Positions 28,387 to 52,535 of a DNA stretch of 64,000 nucleotides are shown here, in pieces (the stretch's first letter is position 1; every line of letters starts with the position of its first letter). The stretch lies in contig JAVRCV020000026.1 of NCBI GenBank assembly GCA_034530615.2, forward strand, positions 1 through 64,000, in the 5' to 3' direction. The DNA comes from Aulosira sp. ZfuVER01 (lineage in GTDB: Bacteria; Cyanobacteriota; Cyanobacteriia; Cyanobacteriales; Nostocaceae). Below the pieces are notes generated by a model, which ran no database searches, was not told the origin of the DNA, and saw nothing but the letters and a program-made list of their open reading frames with translations. The translations under genes and the position numbers were made by a program.

Positions 28387-29952
28387 ATGAGTATTGATAT
28401 TGTAGTTAAAGCACTTAAGAGTCTTGCAAAACCTGCGGCTTCTCTAGTAATTAATCAAGCTCAACGCAATGAAACTGTAGTCAGAACTTTAAAACAATTC
28501 AATTTTGACCCAGCACAACCACCCAAAGATGTTGACGGTGTTTATATCTACTCTTTAATTGAGTATGGTGTCGGTAAGCCGGAAGCCATGCTGAATCTTT
28601 TTAGGGAAAGAGAGATAAAAAAAGCTTTTTGGAGTGCTTATACTTCCAATAATCCCTTGGGTTTTGTCAAGGAAGTAGAAAAGTTTTTGCAAGGGAATGA
28701 TTTAGAATTTGATATCCGATTGAAAAGAATTGAATTGCGATCGGAGTTAGAAGAGTTTGGGGAAATATTTATTCAGGTTGCTAAAAGAAGTAAATCCAAA
28801 GAGTTTGAACCTTTCCCTGAATGGAATTTAGATGAGTATCCAACGGAATTTAAGTCATTAATTAAAGAAAAAATTCGCTCATTTTGCGGTCGTCAGTTTG
28901 TTTTTGACGCATTTCACAAATTTTGCGACCAAAATCGCAGTGGTTACTTTACAGTAGTGGGTGATGCAGGAATGGGGAAGAGTACCATTGCTGCTAAATA
29001 CGTCTGGGACTATACATCACCATGCTATTTTAATATTCGTTCCGATGGTCGCAATCGAGCGGAGCTTTTTCTAGAAAGTATTCGCAAACAATTAATTAAG
29101 CATTACCAGTTGCAGAATGTCGAGAAGGCTAATTTAGCAGATTTACTAGAACAGGTTAGCAAGAAGCTGACTGCTGGTGGACATCTTGTAATCGTAGTTG
29201 ATGCACTGGATGAAGTAGAACAAGAAGCAGGGGGGAATCTTTTAGATTTACCACCTTCGCTTCCTGAACGTATTTATTTTTTGCTGACTAGGCGACCTTA
29301 TACCAGAGATAAAAAGCGCTTGTCTGCACCAGATGTCCCGGTAGAGGAGCTAGATTTAAGGATAAGTCAGTATGTTAATTTGAGTCGTGAAGATATCAAG
29401 GAGTATATTCGGTACTTTTTGAATATCGATCAAGACTATAAAAATGCAATTAAACAATGGATTCAACAGTGCAATATTTCTGATAACGTTTTTGTTGAGC
29501 AGGTAGCAACTAAGAGTGAAAACAATTTCATGTACCTGCGCTATGTTTTGCCAGGAATTGCTAAAGGTGACTATAATGACCTGAGTTTAAAGCAATTACC
29601 CGATGGTCTGCAAGAATATTATCAAGATCATTGGCAGCGAATGGGTATGGATGATAAATCCCAGGAAGTAAAGGTACTTATTCTGTTTATTTTAGTGGAG
29701 ATTGGTACACCAATTCCTTGTGAGATGATAGCGGCTATTACTGAACAGGATGAATATGATGTGCAAGTAGTTTTAGATGATTGGGTTGAATATTTGAAGC
29801 TGCAAAATATAAAAGGAGAAAACTGCTACAGCATCTATCATGCTAGTTTTTTAGACTTCTTAAAAGTAAAACGGGTTTTGGATGCCAAACGCAAGCTATT
29901 TCAAGAGGTTAATCAACGCATTGCAGATTACCTTATAGAGGAGATGGCATGA
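28387..29952 (+). CDS. NACHT/STAND-like ATPase
   Basis: FCGR pre-motif, Walker A GDAGMGKS, Walker B VIVVDALDE, NFMY, LPDGL..YY, YSIYHASF. Confidence 0.85.
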   Translation: MSIDIVVKALKSLAKPAASLVINQAQRNETVVRTLKQFNFDPAQPPKDVDGVYIYSLIEYGVGKPEAMLNLFREREIKKAFWSAYTSNNPLGFVKEVEKFLQGNDLEFDIRLKRIELRSELEEFGEIFIQVAKRSKSKEFEPFPEWNLDEYPTEFKSLIKEKIRSFCGRQFVFDAFHKFCDQNRSGYFTVVGDAGMGKSTIAAKYVWDYTSPCYFNIRSDGRNRAELFLESIRKQLIKHYQLQNVEKANLADLLEQVSKKLTAGGHLVIVVDALDEVEQEAGGNLLDLPPSLPERIYFLLTRRPYTRDKKRLSAPDVPVEELDLRISQYVNLSREDIKEYIRYFLNIDQDYKNAIKQWIQQCNISDNVFVEQVATKSENNFMYLRYVLPGIAKGDYNDLSLKQLPDGLQEYYQDHWQRMGMDDKSQEVKVLILFILVEIGTPIPCEMIAAITEQDEYDVQVVLDDWVEYLKLQNIKGENCYSIYHASFLDFLKVKRVLDAKRKLFQEVNQRIADYLIEEMA

Positions 29953-29953
29953 T

Positions 29954-32059
29954 ATGGGAGAATTTGCTGACAAGTTAGCGGCAAAAAAGCCGTCTATTCA
30001 ACGTGTTTACTTGGGTAGTTTAGTACCAAGCTTGGTGAAGTCGGGAAAATTAGGAAAGTATTACCAAACCCTGACTGATTTTGATTTCATTAATGCCAAG
30101 ATTAACAATCCTGAGTTTGGGGTGCAACCGCTAGTTGAAGATTATGATTTGATTGATCGTGAAGAGACATTAAATTATCCAGAATACAACTCTGAGAAAG
30201 TCGAAAGTCTGAAATTGATTCAAGGTGCATTAAGACTGTCAGCGCATATTTTAGTAGTGGATAAGCAGCAACTAGCAAGTCAATTGCACGGACGGTTACT
30301 AAATCAAAAAATGCCAGAAGAAATTCAAGCATTATTGACACAAACCAAGCAAGAGACAACTACCCCTTGGCTATGTCCTTTGACTGCTAGCTTAATCCCA
30401 CCAGGAAGAAACTTAATCCGCACCCTCACTGGTCATAGCTTCCCGGTAAATGCCGTCACCGTCACCCCCAATGGGCAACAAGTGATTTCTGCATCTAATG
30501 ACAACACCCTTAAAGTCTGGAATCTGGTAACTGGAGAGGAACTATTCACCCTCAAGGGTCATAGTAACTCGGTAAATGCAGTCGCTATCACCCCCAATGG
30601 GCAACAAGTGATTTCTGCATCCAATGACAACACCCTCAAAGTCTGGAATCTGGTAACTGGAGAGGAACTATTCACCCTCAAGGGTCATAGTAACTCGGTA
30701 AATGCAGTCGCTATCACCCCCAATGGGCAACAAGTGATTTCTGCATCCAATGACAACACCCTCAAAGTCTGGAATCTGGTAACTGGAGAGGAACTATTCA
30801 CCCTCAAGGGTCATAGTAACTCGGTAAATGCAGTCGCTATCACCCCCAATGGACGACAAGTGATTTCTGCATCCAATGACAACACCCTCAAAGTCTGGAA
30901 TCTCGCAACTGGAAAACTAATGTTCACCCTCAAGGGTCATAAGTCCTCGATAAATGCCGTTGCCGTCACTCCCAAGGGGCAACAGGCGATTTCTGCATCC
31001 AATGATAACACCCTCAAAGTCTGGAATCTGGTAGCAGGAAAGCAACTATTCACTCTCAGGGATCATAACTCTTCGGTAAATGCCGTTGCCTTTACCCCCA
31101 ATGGACAACAGGTGATTTGTGCATCCAATGACAACACCCTCAAAGTCTGGAATTTAGCAACTAGGAAGCAACTATTCACCTTTGATGGTCATGGTAACTC
31201 GGTAAATGCCGTCGCCGTCACCCCTAACGGACAACAAGTGATTTCTGCATCCAATGACAACACCCTCAAAGTCTGGAATCTGACAACTGAGGAGGAACTA
31301 TTCACCCTCAATCGTCATAGTTCCTTGGTAAAAGCTGTCGCCGCCACTCCTAACGGGCAACAAGTGATTTCTGCATCCAATGACAACACCCTCAAAGTCT
31401 GGAATCTCGCAACTGGGGAGGAATTATTCACCCTCAATGGTCAGAATAACTTGGTAAAAGCTGTCGCCGTCACACCCAATGGGCAAAGGGTGATTTTTGC
31501 ATTATGGGACAACATCCTCAAAGTCTGGAATTTGACAACTGGGGAGGAATTATTCACCCTCAATGGTCATGGTAACTCGATAAATACTGTCGCCGTCACC
31601 CCCAATGGGCAACAAGTGATTTCTGCATCAGATAACAACACCCTCAAAGTCTGGAATCTGGCAACTGGGAAGGAAGTATTCACCCTCAAGGGTCATACAT
31701 CCTCGATAAACACCGTTGCTGTCACACCCAATGGGCAACAAGTGATTTCTGCATCCGATGACAACACTCTCAAAGTCTGGAATCTCGCAACAGGGCAGGA
31801 ACTATTTACCCTAAATCGTCATAGTAACTCGGTAAACGCCTTTGCCGTCACCCCCAATGGGCAACAAGTGATTTCTGCATCCAATGACAACACTCTCAAA
31901 GTCTGGAATCTCGCAACTATGAAGATAATTGCCACTTTTACGGGAGAAAGTTACATCTCTTGCTGTACTGTTGCACCTGATCGCATGACAATTGTCGCAG
32001 GGGAACAATCAGGTAGGATGCATTTTTTGCGTCTTGAGAACATGAGATCTAATTCATAA
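29954..32059 (+). CDS. WD40-repeat protein with N-terminal helical domain
   Basis: 12 GH-type...KVWNL repeats; N-terminal LTDFDF and QLASQLHGRLL segments. Confidence 0.92.
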   Translation: MGEFADKLAAKKPSIQRVYLGSLVPSLVKSGKLGKYYQTLTDFDFINAKINNPEFGVQPLVEDYDLIDREETLNYPEYNSEKVESLKLIQGALRLSAHILVVDKQQLASQLHGRLLNQKMPEEIQALLTQTKQETTTPWLCPLTASLIPPGRNLIRTLTGHSFPVNAVTVTPNGQQVISASNDNTLKVWNLVTGEELFTLKGHSNSVNAVAITPNGQQVISASNDNTLKVWNLVTGEELFTLKGHSNSVNAVAITPNGQQVISASNDNTLKVWNLVTGEELFTLKGHSNSVNAVAITPNGRQVISASNDNTLKVWNLATGKLMFTLKGHKSSINAVAVTPKGQQAISASNDNTLKVWNLVAGKQLFTLRDHNSSVNAVAFTPNGQQVICASNDNTLKVWNLATRKQLFTFDGHGNSVNAVAVTPNGQQVISASNDNTLKVWNLTTEEELFTLNRHSSLVKAVAATPNGQQVISASNDNTLKVWNLATGEELFTLNGQNNLVKAVAVTPNGQRVIFALWDNILKVWNLTTGEELFTLNGHGNSINTVAVTPNGQQVISASDNNTLKVWNLATGKEVFTLKGHTSSINTVAVTPNGQQVISASDDNTLKVWNLATGQELFTLNRHSNSVNAFAVTPNGQQVISASNDNTLKVWNLATMKIIATFTGESYISCCTVAPDRMTIVAGEQSGRMHFLRLENMRSNS
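30421..31930 (+). repeat. 126-bp intragenic tandem repeat, 12 copies (WD40 units)
   Basis: Units at 30421, 30547, 30673, 30799 onward; several near-identical at DNA level. Confidence 0.92.
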
Positions 32060-32100
32060 TTCATAATTCGTAATTTGTAGTTGAGAAACTATCCAGGATA

Positions 32101-32664
32101 TTAATGACCAAGAATTTCGCTAACGGTAATGTTTACATCGCTTCAGGCTGGAATTGGTAAAGTTTGACTGCTAGCGAACTTTTGAATATGCTGATATCCT
32201 GCTGCGGTGGGTTGTTGATAAACTTCGACAATTTGCTCGTTAATATCTACTAACTAAACTTCAATTATGTTTGCTTCTGCATATAAAGGAATTTTCTGTT
32301 CTCGGTCATACTCGATAGTTGAATCAGCTACTTCAATTAATAAAAAAATATCCTGGGGTTGGGGGTGTGCAGTGGCGTAAAAATCATCACAGGGTTTAAG
32401 TAATGCTACATCTGGCTGAGGTTGTGAGTTATTGTTTAACACGACAGGATTATGAACAGAAATTATGATGCTATTTCCCAAACGCTGACCTAACTTATTA
32501 CTCAGTCGCCTGACACAAGCCGCGTGTTTTGTGCCAAAAGGCGACATTTCAAGAATCTCTCCCCGTATCAGTTCTACTCGGTCATACTTTGTTAGAATCC
32601 CCGAATCAATAATTTTATGATATTGCTTAACTGTGAATTTCTGTCTTAATAACTGCACAGTCAT
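32101..32664 (-). pseudogene. Uma2-family endonuclease pseudogene
   Basis: QPQPDV and LIEVADST motifs; in-frame TAG (32254-56, at the expected EVW) and TGA (32143-45), with family-like sequence continuing to TAA at 32101. Confidence 0.85.
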
Positions 32665-32713
32665 GACTACCTCCACTGTTGGTTTAATAGTAATGCAAAA
32701 TTCAACATCCATT

Positions 32714-32808
32714 GTCATTGCGAGTGTAGCGAAGCGAAACGAAGCAATCCCAACCCTTGATGATTACTTCACTTCTTACCCTACGGGAAGGCTTTGCCTA
32801 CGCAATGA
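32714..32808. repeat. Palindromic element (TCATTGCG...GAAGCAATC...CGCAATGA) with an internal insert
   Basis: Terminal IR at 32715-22 and 32801-08, plus an imperfect inner IR GAAGCAATC/GATTACTTC. Confidence 0.65.
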
Positions 32809-32857
32809 TATAAATAGTTTTGCATAACCGCTACTCTTATAATTATTCCTCACAATT

Positions 32858-33946
32858 ATGAACTCGCCACCTAAACCACCCACTAAAATCAATTCCAGAG
32901 GACATCCCAAGAAGTTTGAGGAAATTATTACTGAGAAAAGCCATAATTTTATTGGTCGTGAATTTGTGTTTACAGCTATTCATGAGTTTATTCACCGTTA
33001 TCGCCGGGGTTATTTCACTATTGTTGGCGCACCTGGTAGTGGTAAAAGTGCTATTCTCGCCAAGTATGCGACAGATAATCCTGATGTTGTCTATTACAGC
33101 GTTGAACTTGAGGGTAAAAATCACGCCGAGGAATTCATCAGCAATATTTGTACCCAACTTGTTGAGATATTCAATGTAGAGACGTTACCTGTAGAGACAT
33201 TTCATGTCACATTTCTACATCAGTTAATTCAGCAAATCAGCGATGAGTTAGAACCCGAGCAAAAACTAATAATTACTATTGATGGTTTAGACCGCATTGA
33301 CCGCAAGAGTCAATCTCCTGGGACAAATTTATTTTATCTTCCCCGCTATCTCCCAGATGGGGTTTATTTTCTCCTCACCCGCAGACCTTTTCTGAGAGAG
33401 AAATCGGGTTTATTAATTGAAACGCCGTCACAAAATCTGGCGTTAGAAGACTACTCAGCAGAAAATCGGCAAGATATTCAAACATATATCCAGCAATATT
33501 TAACTCACGAAGATATAAAGTCTTGGCTAAGTAATCGCCAGATAGGTGAGCAAGATTTTTGCACTAGCATTGCTGCTAAATCGGAAAATAATTTTATGTA
33601 TGTCAGTCAGGTTTTAGCTGCTATGGCTGAGGGTTTTGATCCGCAAGCTTTGGATGACAATCAAGTTCCACCTGGATTAGATGCATATTATCAACAGCAT
33701 TGGCAAAAAATGATGACTGCAAATCAAGATGAGGATTTTAGCCAAGCTGTGTTGAATGTTTTAGTAGAGCAACAGCAGCCGATGTCTGTAGAAGCAATTG
33801 CAGAAATTATTAATGCGGATGAATTTGATGTTGAGGAAGTGTTAGAAAATTGGTTTGAGTTTTTCCATCAAGAAGAAATGGGAGAAGAGAAATATTACAG
33901 CTTTTATCATTCAAGTTTCCGTAAATGGTTAGCAAATAATATTTAA
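32858..33946 (+). CDS. Second NACHT/STAND-like ATPase (core-only paralog of 28387..29952)
   Basis: FIGR, GAPGSGKS, IITIDGLD, YFLLTRRP, SENNFMY, YSFYHSSF shared with the first ATPase. Confidence 0.85.
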   Translation: MNSPPKPPTKINSRGHPKKFEEIITEKSHNFIGREFVFTAIHEFIHRYRRGYFTIVGAPGSGKSAILAKYATDNPDVVYYSVELEGKNHAEEFISNICTQLVEIFNVETLPVETFHVTFLHQLIQQISDELEPEQKLIITIDGLDRIDRKSQSPGTNLFYLPRYLPDGVYFLLTRRPFLREKSGLLIETPSQNLALEDYSAENRQDIQTYIQQYLTHEDIKSWLSNRQIGEQDFCTSIAAKSENNFMYVSQVLAAMAEGFDPQALDDNQVPPGLDAYYQQHWQKMMTANQDEDFSQAVLNVLVEQQQPMSVEAIAEIINADEFDVEEVLENWFEFFHQEEMGEEKYYSFYHSSFRKWLANNI

Positions 33947-46440: not shown

Positions 46441-46854
46441 TTATACTCGCTCAACAACTTCATCTTTTTCCCAAATAACTGATTCTTCCATTGTCCCAAG
46501 CTCCGCGAAAGCTTTGGCAGCTTTAAGGGTTGTATTTAGGTCAACGCAGGACTTAGCCGGATAAATACCTTCTTGACCCCCAACTATTACAAATTCATCT
46601 ATATCTGATTTAAATGGGTCAACAAGATAATGAAAACTCTCATTATCAAATGTTAAATACACTATATATTTGTCTAAACCACCACCCACCGCCATGTGAG
46701 TTTCGCCATCCGTTTCTAAGGTTACAAGTGTTTTGTGATGCCCATCCAACTCTCTAATAGCTAATTCTATTTCTTGCCAGCTATGCGCTTGCTCTACACT
46801 TCCCTTGTTCTGATTACCAATCCAATCTTCAACTGAAAATTTTGTTATAAACAT
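46441..46854 (-). CDS. Imm1-family immunity protein (putative)
   Basis: MAVGGG...VGGQEGIYP...VDLNTTLKAAKAFAELG...VIWE pattern; GAGG ribosome site overlaps the upstream stop. Confidence 0.75.
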   Translation of the reverse strand: MFITKFSVEDWIGNQNKGSVEQAHSWQEIELAIRELDGHHKTLVTLETDGETHMAVGGGLDKYIVYLTFDNESFHYLVDPFKSDIDEFVIVGGQEGIYPAKSCVDLNTTLKAAKAFAELGTMEESVIWEKDEVVERV

Positions 46855-46862
46855 AATTAACC

Positions 46863-47247
46863 TCACATCAGTGTAATCGTTTGACGACCGCTAGGGCTAA
46901 TAACTTCTATTTCTTCTAGACCAAGCTGTCTAGCCATTCCTTTCACACCTCCGTTCTGACCACATGCTCTGCAAAGATCCCGATCAACTGTTAAACGCGC
47001 TTTTCCTCCTCTTAATCCTGCATCAAAGGCTTGTTGAAAGGCATCAGCTTCAGCATGTGTGCGACTAATTGGATTTACTTTAAGTGTAATCTTTCTGCGA
47101 TTGGGGTTACTGCCTGCACTGATACCAAAAAATACGCTACCACCTATCTCTAACTTTGCGATTGTAGCGCGATCGCCTTCACTTCCTGCTGGAGGAAGAC
47201 CAAGCAGTTGCCTATACTCTGCTAATTCTTCAAAAATAAGCTTTCAC
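46863..47247 (-). CDS. Zn-dependent nucleic-acid deaminase toxin-like domain (absent from ORF track; start disrupted or non-canonical)
   Basis: Open frame 47243-46863 encodes ...THAEADAFQQAFDAG...LTVDRDLCRACG...EVISPSG (HAE + CxxC); GTG at 47247 is one base out of frame. Confidence 0.8.
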
Positions 47248-47312: not shown

Positions 47313-47350
47313 AAAAAAATTTGATCGTTCTGCTTCGCTACAATCTAAAA
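47313..47350 (-). other. Conserved element downstream of caspase-FGE gene 1 (TTTTAGATTGTAGCGAAGCAGAACGATCAAATTTTTT)
   Basis: Near-identical to 52499-52535 and at nearly the same distance from the stop codon. Confidence 0.8.
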
Positions 47351-47397
47351 GCAAAAAAGAACAAGCGTAAAGGGAAAAAGGACTAAAGCATAAAGAG

Positions 47398-49296
47398 CTA
47401 GCGAAGAATCCTCCCGAACGCGCAGACAACACGAAAACCAAGATCCAGATAGATGCTATCGCGCTCTGCCCAATAGTGGAAGCTACGGAACGTGGAACGG
47501 CAGTACCTAGGGCTACTGCCCCAGGAACCGCCACGCCGTATACGAGACTGATTATCATTAAGCCAAGCACTACCATCTGTTGGCGCTTTTTTATAGCTTT
47601 CATGGTAAGTATCTTGACACCACTCCTCAACGTTCCCGTGCATGTCGTATAATCCAAAGCCGTTGGGTGTAAAACTTCCTACTTCTGTTGTTTCTCCACG
47701 TTTTTTGCCTAATGGCTCAGAACCGTAGGTGTCAGTCCCATCGTAGTTAGCTAACTCAGTTGTTATCGTTTGTCCGAAGTAAAATGGTGTAGTCGTTCCT
47801 GCTCGACAAGCATATTCCCACTCTGCTTCACTTGGTAGGCGATATTGTTTGTTTGTATATTTGGAGAGGCGATCGCAAAACTCAACTGCATCATTCCAGG
47901 AAACTTGCTCTACTGGTCGGTTGTCTCCTTTGAAATTTGATGGGTCAGCTTTCAGGTCATACTTAACTTTGGGTAGTGTTGCTACTCTTCTCCATTGCGC
48001 TTGAGTGACTGGATTTTTACCCATGAAGAATGATTTAACCGTTACTTGATGTTGCGGTTTTTCTCTTTTAAACCCATCCCATTTGAATTTTTGCACAAGC
48101 CTTTCTATTTCTTCATCTTCCGTCCCCATCATGAATTTGCCACTAGGGATATGCATTATTTCTAAAATGACACCATTGCCTAAGTCTTCAGTAAAATATT
48201 GAGCTTGGCGTTGTTCTCGTTTAATTTCTTGACCTTTGGCATTTACCGTAACCACATCAAATTTAAATACTTGTAGTTCAGGAGTGACTGACTTCTCTTC
48301 CCTTGAGCAAGTAATAAGCTCAGAAATTACTTCGGTTAACCTCTCTCCTCTTGAGGAAGTAACAGGCTCAGGAGTTGGGGATGGTGAAGAAACTCCCTGT
48401 TTATTGGCAATTCTGATAAATGCTTCAATTACCTGCACATCTGAACCCCTAGCAGCCACATTCACCCGCAACCATAATTGTCTAGCTAATTCCCAATCTC
48501 CTTTAACCTCAGCTTGATAAGCATCTATTTTCAGTTGGTTAATATCATGAAGCGTGGCGTAGTCGGGTAACAAAATTAGGTGTAGTTTTGTGGCAGGTTC
48601 GGCTGTAACATAGGGATTTTGCAGAGTTTTTCGGTGTATTTGATTAATTGCGGGTACTCTTGCTTGTAAATATCTATCCAATCTTTCTACTGTGGCGCAG
48701 TTTCCTTCACCTGCTATCCTCAACCCTTCTAACAAAGCTTGGGTGAATGAGCCATGTTGTAACTGCTCAATTTCATAAGACTTTTGACTGGGACTGCAAG
48801 AGTAAAAGGTGACTACTCCTTGATGTTCTTCTCCAATACCCACTCCCCGTCTGCTACCTTCATCACGGCAAGCATCCAAAAACAACACTACATTATCTGC
48901 CCCACTGCGGCGCAATCTTTGGGTAACAAATTCCACAGGGATTGCTGTATGTTCTACATCGCCTGGGTCGCTATCTATTAGCATAAGATAATCGCGATCG
49001 CCTTCCCGACAGCCATGACCTGCAAAGAAAAACCAGAGATTATCTCCTGGTTCTAGTAGTGGCGTTTCAAAGTTTGCTCTTAAGAACCGCCGCAAGTTAC
49101 CGTAAGTAGGCTGAGTGGGTATAGGCGGATTGGTTGGGATTGGGGGAGAATCATCAGTGAAGAGGAAAACTTGATCAAATCTGGCTTCCTTGCCAAACCA
49201 ATCGCGCATAGCTTCGGCGTCTAGTTTGGCGTAATTTAGGTGCTGAAGATTGTTGTATTGATTAATGCCAATTGCTACTGCCCAATTTTTAGCCAT
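47398..49296 (-). CDS. Caspase-like (C14) peptidase + FGE-sulfatase/CLec domain protein, soluble
   Basis: FAGHG and FLDAC dyad; RLPSEAEWEYACRAG, LYDMHGNV, RGGSW, GFRVV; start at ATG 49296. Confidence 0.92.
   Translation of the reverse strand: MAKNWAVAIGINQYNNLQHLNYAKLDAEAMRDWFGKEARFDQVFLFTDDSPPIPTNPPIPTQPTYGNLRRFLRANFETPLLEPGDNLWFFFAGHGCREGDRDYLMLIDSDPGDVEHTAIPVEFVTQRLRRSGADNVVLFLDACRDEGSRRGVGIGEEHQGVVTFYSCSPSQKSYEIEQLQHGSFTQALLEGLRIAGEGNCATVERLDRYLQARVPAINQIHRKTLQNPYVTAEPATKLHLILLPDYATLHDINQLKIDAYQAEVKGDWELARQLWLRVNVAARGSDVQVIEAFIRIANKQGVSSPSPTPEPVTSSRGERLTEVISELITCSREEKSVTPELQVFKFDVVTVNAKGQEIKREQRQAQYFTEDLGNGVILEIMHIPSGKFMMGTEDEEIERLVQKFKWDGFKREKPQHQVTVKSFFMGKNPVTQAQWRRVATLPKVKYDLKADPSNFKGDNRPVEQVSWNDAVEFCDRLSKYTNKQYRLPSEAEWEYACRAGTTTPFYFGQTITTELANYDGTDTYGSEPLGKKRGETTEVGSFTPNGFGLYDMHGNVEEWCQDTYHESYKKAPTDGSAWLNDNQSRIRRGGSWGSSPRYCRSTFRSFHYWAERDSIYLDLGFRVVCAFGRILR
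47420..47532 (-). other. Putative DGR variable region of gene 1
   Basis: 113-nt ungapped alignment to 52319-52431 with identical flanks and a hypervariable interior. Confidence 0.6.
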
Positions 49297-49419
49297 TCTG
49301 CGTTGGTATGCTCGTCTTGTTGCCAGTTTACGTGTTACTACTGAATAATAGTAATGCAATAGCGCTGGAAGCTTTGGTAAAAGCTAGTTAAATCAAGAAT
49401 AATCTAAATAATTAAAATT

Positions 49420-49854
49420 ATGTCAGCAGAACATCCTACCCCAAAAGCTATCTGGATTATTACAGAAGAAGTAGCGGAAACTTCAAATACAACCACTGAA
49501 ACTTACACAGATACCGTCACCAGAGGTGGAGCCAGAAGCGGTACTCAAGATACAGGCGGAAGACTGGGCGGAATTCAAACCAAGGAAGAAATAGTTATCA
49601 GTCAAAAAAAAGGCGAACTAGTAATTACTAGACGCAAAGTAGAAGTATCTCAACTCAAGCAAGAAATGAAGGGATTTCTCCAAGCAATGCGGGAGATGCT
49701 TGATGAAGCGGAAGAACCCAATTCAAAAATGCAGTTAGATGAGGTTGAACTTTCAGTAGAAATTAATGGGGAAGGACAAGTCAGCCTGTTTGGGCTTGGT
49801 GGTGGTAAAGCCGGCGGAAAAGGCGCGATGACTTTTAAGTTTAAGCGGAAATAA
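49420..49854 (+). CDS. Pepco-like (peptidase co-occurring) domain protein
   Basis: Helix followed by MQLDEVELSVEINGEGQVSLFGLGGGKAGGKGAMTFKFKR; directly upstream of a caspase gene. Confidence 0.7.
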   Translation: MSAEHPTPKAIWIITEEVAETSNTTTETYTDTVTRGGARSGTQDTGGRLGGIQTKEEIVISQKKGELVITRRKVEVSQLKQEMKGFLQAMREMLDEAEEPNSKMQLDEVELSVEINGEGQVSLFGLGGGKAGGKGAMTFKFKRK

Positions 49855-49867
49855 TTGGTAGTTGAAG

Positions 49868-52453
49868 ATGGGTAGAAATTGGGCGATTGTTGTGGGGATT
49901 AATCACTATGAAAATCTGCGATCGCTAAACTTTGCCAAGCGAGATGCTACTGTGATGGCAACTTGGTTTCAACAAGAAGCCAGATTTGAGCAAGTTTTTC
50001 TATTTACTGATGATTCTTCCCCAATCCCTACCAATCCGCCAATTCCTACTCAACCTACTTTTGGACATTTGCGGCGATTTTTACGGGCACAGTTTGAGAA
50101 TACTTTATTAAAGCCAGAAGATAATTTATGGTTTTTCTTTGCCGGTCATGGCAATAGATATAAAGACAAAGATTATTTAATGTTCTCCGATAGTGACCCA
50201 GGAGATATAGAACATACTGCTATTTCTGTTGATTATATAACTCAAAGATTGCGGCGTAGTGGTGCTGATAATGTAGTGCTATTTCTAGATGCTTGCCGTG
50301 ATGAAAGTAGTCGCTCCGGATTGGGAATTGGTGAGCAAAGACATCAGGGAGTTATTACATTTTATTCTTGCACAGCTAACCAAAAATCTTGGGAAATTGA
50401 TGAATTACAACATGGTGCTTTTACCTATTCACTATTAGAAGGATTGCGGCTACAGGGAGAGGCTAATTGTGCCACAGTCGAGCGTTTAGCACAATATTTA
50501 AGTTATCAAGTTCCTGATGTGAATACTCGTTATGGCAAGGCAGTACAAAATCCTTATTTACAGGCAGAACCGCCTTATAAAATGTATTTTATTTTATTAG
50601 AGCAAACTGCTACACTGAGAGATGTTGAGCCATTAAAATATCAAGCCTCTCAAGCTGAAAACAGAGGTGATTTTTCATTAGCAAAACAATTATGGGTAAG
50701 AGTTTTAGCTGTATCCCGTGGTGATTGGGAGGCAATTGAAGCTATTGAAAGGATTGCCCGTAAGCGAGGAGGTTTTGAACCGACAATCTCAAATTCTGAG
50801 CCTGTGACTTTCTCAAGCGGAGGTAGATCAGTAAGTAATGAACTGTTAGCTCAAAAGCAAGAAGAACATCGGCAAAATATAGTTCGCTATCGGCAAGCTT
50901 TTTCGGAAGCAATTGAGCGAGAATATCCTCTTAATGAATCAACTCGTCGTCAGTTAAAGCAGTTGCAGCAATCTCTGCGACTCAAAGAAAAAGAAGTATT
51001 GCAAATTGAACAGCCAATTGTTTCTCCCAAGGAAGTAGAATATCAGCAACAGCAAGAGAAAATAAGACAACAGCAAGAGGAAGCAGAATATCGTCAAAAG
51101 CTACGGCAGTATGAGCAAGAATTGATTCAAACAATTGAGCGAGAATTTCCCCTAACTGAAGCAAGTCTTAGACAGTTAAGAAATTTACAACAATCCTTGC
51201 AGCTTATGGATCAGGAAGTATTGCAGATTGCACAACCAATTGTGATTCAGAAGGAAGCAGAATATCAGCAACAGCAAGAAAGAATTAGACAGCAAAAAGC
51301 AGTAGAAAAACAAATACAACAAGAGACAGAATTACAAATAAAGCAGCTGGAAGCAGAAGAAAAACGGCAGAGAGAAGAAGCCAAATATCACCAAAAATTA
51401 CGGCAGTATGAGCAGGCATTAATTGAGCAGGCATTCATGAAAACAATTAATGCAGGAAATTCCCTTGATAGTTATGTTATGCGGCTGAGGTTAAGACTAC
51501 TTCGATGGACTTTAGGACTTAAACAAACGGACATCACTGCAATTGAAGCTAGAGTTGTAGCAAGCTACGATCAATCGACTCAACCTACTCAAGAACGAAT
51601 AACTCGACAAAAGTTTTTGAAGTGGGCTGGTTTGGGAGGTGCAAGTTTAGTGACAGTAGTAGTAGGCCGTGAAATTTTTAAGAATCAGGTTGAGTTTGAA
51701 ACGGTAACTGTAGATGAAAAGGGACAGGTAATTAAACGAGATTCTAAAAAGCAACCTAAGTCCTTTAAGGAGGACTTGGGTAATGGTATAACTCTAGAAA
51801 TGGTCTCTATTCCTAGTGGTTCATTTAAAATGGGTTCACCATCAGGGGAGAAAGGTCGAAGTTCAAATGAAAGTCCCCAGCACGATGTAAATGTGCCTGC
51901 TTTTTTGATGGGCAGGTTTGAAGTCACCCAGGAACAATATCAACAAGTAATGGGTACAAATCCATCTAACTTCAAGGGAAAGAAACGCCCTGTAGAGCAA
52001 GTATCTTGGAATGATGCAGCAGAATTTTGCAAAAAGCTTAGTGATAAGACTGGGCGGAAATATCGCCTACCTAGTGAAGCAGAGTGGGAATACGCCTGTC
52101 GTGCAGGAACAAATACACCTTTTCACTTTGGCGAGACAATTACAACAGAGTTAGCTAATTACAATGGGAATTCTACTTACGCTTCTGAGCCAAAGGGTAA
52201 AAATCGTCAACAGACAACAGAAGTAGGAAGTTTTACACCCAACGGCTTTGGATTATACGATATGCACGGGAACGTTTGGGAATGGATAGATACTAATTCT
52301 AATTTTCATCTGCTGCGGGGCGGTTCCTGGAGCAACTCTCCTAGCGTCTGCCGTTCCGCTTCTCGCGTCAACGACAGTTGGGCGGGAGGCGCCATCATCG
52401 GCAGCGTTATTGGTTTTCGTGTTGTCTGCGCTGTTGGGAAGATTATTCAATAG
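49868..52453 (+). CDS. Caspase-like (C14) peptidase + helical repeats + hydrophobic segment + FGE-sulfatase/CLec domain
   Basis: FAGHG/FLDAC; about three ~75-aa RQYEQ-type repeats; TRQKFLKWAGLGGASLVTVVVG; FGE motifs. Confidence 0.92.
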   Translation: MGRNWAIVVGINHYENLRSLNFAKRDATVMATWFQQEARFEQVFLFTDDSSPIPTNPPIPTQPTFGHLRRFLRAQFENTLLKPEDNLWFFFAGHGNRYKDKDYLMFSDSDPGDIEHTAISVDYITQRLRRSGADNVVLFLDACRDESSRSGLGIGEQRHQGVITFYSCTANQKSWEIDELQHGAFTYSLLEGLRLQGEANCATVERLAQYLSYQVPDVNTRYGKAVQNPYLQAEPPYKMYFILLEQTATLRDVEPLKYQASQAENRGDFSLAKQLWVRVLAVSRGDWEAIEAIERIARKRGGFEPTISNSEPVTFSSGGRSVSNELLAQKQEEHRQNIVRYRQAFSEAIEREYPLNESTRRQLKQLQQSLRLKEKEVLQIEQPIVSPKEVEYQQQQEKIRQQQEEAEYRQKLRQYEQELIQTIEREFPLTEASLRQLRNLQQSLQLMDQEVLQIAQPIVIQKEAEYQQQQERIRQQKAVEKQIQQETELQIKQLEAEEKRQREEAKYHQKLRQYEQALIEQAFMKTINAGNSLDSYVMRLRLRLLRWTLGLKQTDITAIEARVVASYDQSTQPTQERITRQKFLKWAGLGGASLVTVVVGREIFKNQVEFETVTVDEKGQVIKRDSKKQPKSFKEDLGNGITLEMVSIPSGSFKMGSPSGEKGRSSNESPQHDVNVPAFLMGRFEVTQEQYQQVMGTNPSNFKGKKRPVEQVSWNDAAEFCKKLSDKTGRKYRLPSEAEWEYACRAGTNTPFHFGETITTELANYNGNSTYASEPKGKNRQQTTEVGSFTPNGFGLYDMHGNVWEWIDTNSNFHLLRGGSWSNSPSVCRSASRVNDSWAGGAIIGSVIGFRVVCAVGKIIQ
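52319..52431 (+). other. Putative DGR variable region of gene 2
   Basis: Runs of NNC/NNT codons between GGCGGTTCCTGG and TGGTTTTCGTGTTGTCTGCGC. Confidence 0.7.
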
Positions 52454-52498
52454 CCTTTTATATTAGTTTTTTCCCCTCTACCCTTCTTTCTTTTACCC

Positions 52499-52535
52499 TT
52501 TTAGAGTGTAGCGAAGCAGAACGATCTAATTTTTT
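52499..52535 (+). other. Conserved element downstream of caspase-FGE gene 2 (TTTTAGAGTGTAGCGAAGCAGAACGATCTAATTTTTT)
   Basis: Matches 47313-47350 on the opposite strand. Confidence 0.8.

Follow-up and report, generated by a model that had tools for sequence, protein, structure and literature searches.

A Pepco and caspase-CLec locus of Aulosira whose variable tips look frozen and were probably rewritten in place by transient mobile DGRs

In the window, a stretch of 64,000 nt from Aulosira sp. ZfuVER01 (genome G000, contig C26, positions 1-64000), we identified a Pepco gene lying between two genes for caspase-like proteases with C-terminal CLec domains, and the 3' ends of both protease genes (hereafter, tips) display the adenine-centered footprint of DGR mutation. 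We consider it probable, with moderate confidence, that these three genes constitute a chromosomal defense module whose DGR-mutated tips are now frozen and were rewritten in place by transient mobile DGRs. By analogy with described systems, the module is likely a cell-suicide defense system, and the rewriting of its tips was likely episodic, carried out by mobile DGRs that then leave. A narrower formulation, to which we would assign slightly less than an even chance, is that of an outsourced hypermutation: the chromosomal receptor locus would be mutator-free and DGR-ready, transient plasmid DGRs would reset its tips and then be lost or excised, and the Pepco protein would be activated N-terminally by an arginine-directed caspase.

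The assembly comprises 8.03 Mb in 83 contigs and was scored as 99.99% complete; the features of the locus are compiled in Table 1. Both protease genes combine Peptidase_C14 and FGE-sulfatase domains, with the variable regions occupying their 3' ends, and the Pfam search assigned PF00656 and PF03781 to gene 1. The open reading frame of gene 1 extends to a TTG at 49359, the ATG at 49296 being its likeliest start, which matches the starts of the orthologues. PF03781 and the sequence match of the gene 1 CLec to the DGR protein TvpA (2y3c, E=1.4e-23) place an FGE-type CLec at the C-terminus, as a preliminary description of this DNA had recognized. The His and Cys dyad motifs are kept in both proteases (His94/Cys143 in gene 1, His96/Cys145 in gene 2), and Pepco adjoins a protease-sensor fusion, with gene 2 starting 7 nt past its end. 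The middle of gene 2 is Gln/Glu-rich and has no Pfam match, and no MoxR, vWA or STAND parts were seen in the module. As judged from sequence, the post-stop elements of the two genes likely correspond to an IMH with its downstream cis-element; in both genes, the IMH-type stretch has 4 mismatches over 27 nt, versus 0-6 in cassette targets, and a search for a hairpin directly behind the tips was negative for both. The identical 47-bp block likely reflects a recent conversion between both CLec domains, and an inversion through it, swapping the tips between the proteases, is possible, though unseen. The contigs of three source-like sequencing runs break at this block; opposite-strand joints in run contigs were considered as inversions and rejected, as they are short pieces of other contigs. 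Regarding the surroundings, an Imm1 immunity-protein gene (46441-46866) is located after gene 1, and G009 and G006 also have one close to the locus; at 28387-33946, inspection of the translations by eye showed a pair of related genes of P-loop NTPase-like type and another that resembles WD40-repeat genes; and the promoter-like sequences seen in the gap that separates gene 1 from Pepco are consensus matches only.

Table 1. Features of the Pepco/caspase-CLec locus in the window, and joints between tips and template tails in other loci.
Feature	Position	Strand	Description
Gene 1	47398..49296	-	Caspase-like protease with C-terminal FGE-type CLec; 632 aa from ATG 49296
VR1	47420..47532	-	DGR variable region at the gene 1 3' end
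Post-stop element, gene 1	47313..47395	-	85.7% (84 nt) relative to the sequence that follows the L086 cis target
47-bp block	47645..47691	-	Identical to 52214-52260, inverted orientation
Pepco	49420..49854	+	144 aa; PF24393 E=1.1e-28, residues 11-143
Gene 2	49862..52453	+	Caspase-like protease, C-terminal CLec, 863 aa
Deletion junction	52283..52285	+	19 codons lost in frame from the gene 2 CLec, just upstream of VR2
VR2	52319..52431	+	DGR variable region at the gene 2 3' end
Post-stop element, gene 2	52457..52535	+	85.4% over 82 nt to L086
Tip-to-template-tail joint	L035:8812-8940		
Tip-to-template-tail joint	L036:8886-9170		
Tip-to-template-tail joint	L037		
Tip-to-template-tail joint	L083:5947-6260		

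The gapless 113-nt alignment of VR1 and VR2 reported in the preliminary description was reproduced, with 77 of 113 positions identical and with identical flanks at both tips, and so was the bias of the differences towards codon positions 1-2 (25 of 36, against 11 at position 3). Placed on the template of genome G019, 23 of these 36 differences fall on adenines, and 10 of the remaining 13 are third positions. The templates used for tip comparison come from other Nostocales genomes; against that of L084, which adjoins RT and Avd, VR1 is changed at 18/31 adenines and at 10/82 non-adenine positions (Fisher p=1.9e-6), and VR2 at 19/31 and 5/82, respectively (p=1.8e-9), the adenine bias being found with all 8 same-length templates tested (p<=1.2e-3). 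Sorted by template base, the changes in VR2 affect 19/31 A, 2/29 C, 2/23 G and 1/21 T, i.e., the enrichment is at A only. Moreover, over the 12 AAN template codons, VR2 is changed at 15/24 first and second positions and at 0/11 non-adenine third positions, which is the reverse of ordinary drift; the corresponding figures for VR1 are 14/24 and 4/11. An exact 23-base template motif is present in 9 GTDB genomes.

If the two genes were ordinary paralogues, with diversifying selection acting on binding residues and no DGR history, the third-position changes of VR1 and its 10 non-adenine differences could be accommodated; however, the codon pattern of VR2 refutes this account for that tip, the enrichment of its changes lies at template adenines only, and the homologous module of G103 (see below) is a perfect DGR target, so that we give a purely paralogous origin almost no credence. 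The DGR origin proposed earlier for both tips is thus supported by the adenine footprint, along with the occurrence of the module with a complete DGR in G103. It had also been pointed out, rightly, that several differences do not fit one template; drift in gene 1 explains them, since 7 of its 10 non-adenine differences from the L084 template are silent.

The DGR machinery itself was absent from the G000 assembly. Blastn, an exhaustive ungapped adenine-aware scan and 34 template-like queries recovered no template there, but CLec gene ends only, and the three other CLec gene ends of this genome carry at least 11 non-adenine changes from any template seen. In one of the template searches, most matches were discarded as a dispersed 56-nt repeat inside the query; this repeat stands behind the template at L086:6186-6241, and many copies occur in all 15 genus genomes. 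A DGR RT query obtained no match in G000 at 1e-20, and the RVT_1 matches comprised only an RT-Cas1 fusion (673 aa, L001:1321-3342, contig C22) and a 149-aa group II intron-like fragment. The best Avd score, 28 bits, did not reach the cut-off of 80, and two weak candidates (27-28 bits) were rejected as far under it; within the window, no RT or Avd remnant was detected at E<0.1. The template motif had no match in JGI metagenome or IMG/VR contigs, and the gene-1 motif none in metagenomes.

Since the DGR is missing from the genome assembly, both tips look frozen. Private changes, defined as non-adenine changes unexplained by any of 7 templates, amount to 7/67 in VR1 (6 silent) and 3/67 in VR2 (2 silent), and the invariant template third positions are changed at 5/20 and 2/20, respectively; by these counts, VR2 would be younger than VR1, yet no longer template-perfect. 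Among 12 cassette targets compared with their own templates, 8 have no non-adenine difference, 2 have one, 1 has two and 1 has ten. The VR1 amino-acid variant recurs in G007, from which it differs at 7 of 37 adenine columns (16-28 in other pairs), and a near-same allele is found in a rhizosphere contig (run X6), where 6 of the 10 listed point differences are the template base. In comparison with G007 (L039), 16/104 differences lie inside the tip and the preceding 100 nt are 99% identical, a pattern that might stem from partial re-homing from the 3' end or from mosaic recombination. In the root-metagenome runs X1-X3, a single contig spans each tip with 0 differences and no depth-adding second contig, an observation of little weight, as these runs belong to one study that is possibly the source of the assembly, and contigs drop rare variants. 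The sensor of gene 2 is likely decaying, as suggested by its missing 19-residue CLec segment: this segment is present in 9/9 other aligned CLec domains, the lost residues are near-invariant across 26 sequences, and the contigs of runs X1-X3 cross the deletion junction gaplessly.

The preliminary description regarded both proteins as diversified in trans, which today would require a DGR on some replicon that the assembly lacks. G000 is indeed the smallest of the 15 genus genomes (8.0 vs 8.3-10.1 Mb), and its plasmid markers are few (a single replication-type protein with DUF3854, and no coupling protein of a T4SS; five relatives have 2-10 DUF3854 matches), therefore plasmids may be missing from it; furthermore, the post-stop elements retain a similarity of about 85% to their counterparts in cassette targets. 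Nevertheless, both tips carry private non-adenine changes, whereas 10 of the 12 cassette targets have 0-1 non-adenine differences, the VR1 allele is common to G007 and run X6, and the contigs of runs X1-X3 are free of differences, for what these are worth. We consequently judge current diversification very improbable, and with neither template, DGR RT nor Avd in the assembly, the claim is unsupported for G000 as it stands today. Of the refuting observations that the earlier account named, the lack of an RT and a template holds for this assembly but not for relatives, which have both and in which the variation among orthologues centers on template adenines.

The locus is present in 10 of 14 congeners in addition to G000, and none of these 11 genomes (out of 15) holds a DGR; five of them are assembled in 2-7 contigs, and the sample comprises one genome per species, strain-level gain and loss being outside its view. 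A DGR RT together with Avd was found in 2 of the 15 genomes (G002 and G010), both of which are without the locus. Wherever the fetched stretch reached them, the neighbors are the same arsC-like and cupin genes, and G004 holds the locus without gene 1. The gene-2 slot varies in the genus (L047:5519-7429, L040:5604-6638, L039:5830-7195, L046, L048), displaying a non-CLec C-terminus in G003 and a missing or truncated caspase in G009 and G007, the gene being absent in G013 and G005.

Among the gene-1 orthologues, the caspase halves are 87-95% identical and the tips 57-84%, and three tip lengths occur in the ten orthologues (in 6, 3 and 1 genomes). Pairs of the 7 tips compared differ at 16-28 of the 37 adenine columns, G000/G007 being the exception (7); cassette targets show a mean of 20 adenine-column differences. 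In the tips of G012, G005 and G006, set against templates of named genomes that belong to several genera, 0/20 invariant template third positions are changed, versus a divergence of 17.5-19.9% at the third positions of their caspases (binomial p 0.012-0.021 per pair, the pairs not being independent). In turn, the 120 nt before the tip are on average 84-92% identical among the 7 core orthologues and 75-81% to 16 cassette-type targets, and the 75 nt after it are, in 6/7, 85-89% identical among orthologues and 74-80% to cassette-type targets, G006 having a deletion in this stretch. This flank comparison leaves out G008; G008 and L018 were dropped as plain orthologues, the gene-1 end of the former resembling gene 2. 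Fresh tips within orthologous flanks thus argue for an in-place replacement after the species split, by templates that are now absent.

Another way of renewing tips would be import, with finished VRs copied by short homologous recombination from plasmid-borne cassette targets or DGR-bearing strains, and no retrohoming at this locus. The CLec halves are mosaic (99% identity between G000 and G007 over the 100 nt preceding the tip, and a gene 2-like gene-1 end in G008), therefore recombination also moves tips; genes 1 and 2 share the 47-bp identical block, and plasmids carry CLec genes with tips of this family. However, the replaced stretch is about template-length and both flanks stay orthologue-like, where donor flanks would be expected in some lineages, and we hold import to be unlikely.

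Complete forms of the system exist in the wider family, in which a sample of 251 genomes yielded 76 with this Pepco type and 81 with a DGR RT match (partial matches included). In G103 (contig C3, 85 kb; L161), the same three genes are colinear and in the same orientation, with 74-77% nucleotide identity; gene 1 is followed by Avd, RT and a 92-class template, with which the two tips agree at 78/78 non-adenine positions. In G106 and G149, Pepco, caspase-CLec, Avd, RT and template are found in a row. At L081 (5430 and 6038), a perfect target lies inverted, about 600 nt from its own template. DGR loss is also documented: at four loci from four genomes (Table 1), a CLec end is joined to the 3' tail of the template, with Avd and RT absent, and these joints likely arose as deletions by recombination between the direct repeats represented by VR and template. 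For instance, L035 follows an intact plasmid cassette for 7.5 kb at 95.6% identity, after which its sequence resumes at the template tail of this cassette. In G004 and G010, adenine-poor 'template slots' were considered as self-mutated templates and rejected, as they are gene ends joined to a template tail without Avd or RT.

The cis forms of G103, G106 and G149 lend themselves to a history of repeated loss, in which the ancestor of the genus bore Avd-RT-template directly behind gene 1, an arrangement like that of G103, and diversification went on in every lineage up to a recent and clean loss of the cassette. Losses are frequent, to judge from the four tip-to-template deletions, a DGR RT split near its C-terminus by an insertion of about 1.3 kb (L084:3583-5949) and the partial RTs that occur in the family sample. 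Nonetheless, this history appears improbable to us: neither the 10 congener loci nor the window hold an RT or Avd remnant (E<0.1), the gene-1 ends keep a target-type tail instead of the template tail left by the observed deletions, and many independent, recent and scarless losses would be required, as well as switches of template length in one cassette lineage.

As for the transient mobile DGRs that we favor, a tblastn search with the G010 RT matched 11 plasmid records, two of them at 90-93% identity, and CLec genes with tips of this family are also located on plasmids. A plasmid- or island-borne Avd-RT-template would retrohome in trans into the tips, selection would retain a useful tip variant, and the DGR would depart by plasmid loss or by tip-to-template deletion; we infer the trans step, no case having been caught in the act. 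In six genomes with a remote Pepco-caspase-CLec locus for which all resident DGRs were read (G204, G127, G118, G063, G142 and G231), no tip matched a resident template, nor did the remote-locus tip of G051, with 1 of its 4 DGRs read; against templates of other genomes, the G118 tip is 1/82 off and that of G204 2/82. This mismatch between tip and resident template fits a departure of the writer, without being direct proof of trans homing.

Regarding function, Pepco makes beta-barrels and kills after cleavage by a linked protease, FGE fusions being included among its protease partners (PMC12642450, a preprint), and the protein encoded here is, by analogy, likely a protease-activated pore-forming effector. 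PADLOC has no model for this Pepco, and the C-terminal tail that is cut after isoleucine in the serine-protease type is absent from it: in 10/10 orthologues the protein stops where the domain does, and Arg35, Gly37, Arg39 and Ser40 of the N-terminal linker are invariant in 10/10, the rest of the linker being variable. Taken together, the absence of a tail and the invariant linker residues suggest an N-terminal cleavage. Orthocaspases cleave after positively charged residues (PMC6426788), and invader molecules have been proposed as ligands of such CLec domains (PMC8195603, PMC10907252). Accordingly to such precedents, a ligand bound by the CLec tip would activate the protease, which would cut Pepco, likely after an arginine of the N-terminal linker, leading to cell death. 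The 'ligand-sensing proteases' of the preliminary description need to be recast in this respect, as the Pepco gene between them, which it had missed, points to a defense module over a generic ligand-sensing protease.

These observations bear on wider questions. Recently rewritten targets occur without an RT in most genus genomes, therefore RT-anchored counts would understate the reach of DGRs in immune receptors; one RT-anchored survey states its blindness to remote targets (PMC8144416), and remote targets are listed in PMC5758913. As to how hypermutation comes to be turned off, the locus suggests an answer that can be tested, namely that the element is lost and the target kept; it also provides a small system (Pepco and caspase-CLec, complete in G103) for asking what cyanobacterial CLec sensors bind. 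In the literature surveyed, which comprised few subscription papers and no supplements, we found no report of a fixed chromosomal locus repeatedly rewritten by non-resident DGRs, nor of a tip-to-template deletion.

Several systems described in previous studies resemble this locus in part. Cyanobacterial orthocaspase-CLec DGR targets, remote targets and one remnant target (all3226) have been described, and the same work suggested that the machinery is discarded when selection has settled on a variant (PMC7517822). Those targets share the domain architecture and target class of genes 1 and 2, and its tables may list related genes; however, that survey covered genomes holding a DGR, whereas none of our 11 locus genomes holds one, and the orthologues studied here bear the marks of having been rewritten in place more than once, by templates that differ in length. 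The putative antigen sensors that DGRs diversify in multicellular bacteria, with Thiohalocapsa PB-PSB1 as the case (PMC10907252), and the FGS conflict systems (PMC8195603) also present CLec sensors and peptidase effectors, with Trypco adapters; DGR loci that lack parts, and activity in trans inside a single genome, were described for them, the template being elsewhere in the same genome or population, unlike here. In the Pepco-protease modules of PMC12642450, Pepco is directly upstream of a protease-sensor fusion, and FGE fusions and cysteine proteases are named, the tested case being SsPepco, which is cut in its C-terminal tail by the serine-protease Avs4. Compared with SsPepco, the Pepco of this locus is tailless, has an Arg-bearing N-terminal linker and is accompanied by two caspase-CLec partners, one of them divergent. 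Thus, the parts of this locus are of known kinds, and what is new is the genus-wide occurrence of fresh tips without a resident DGR.
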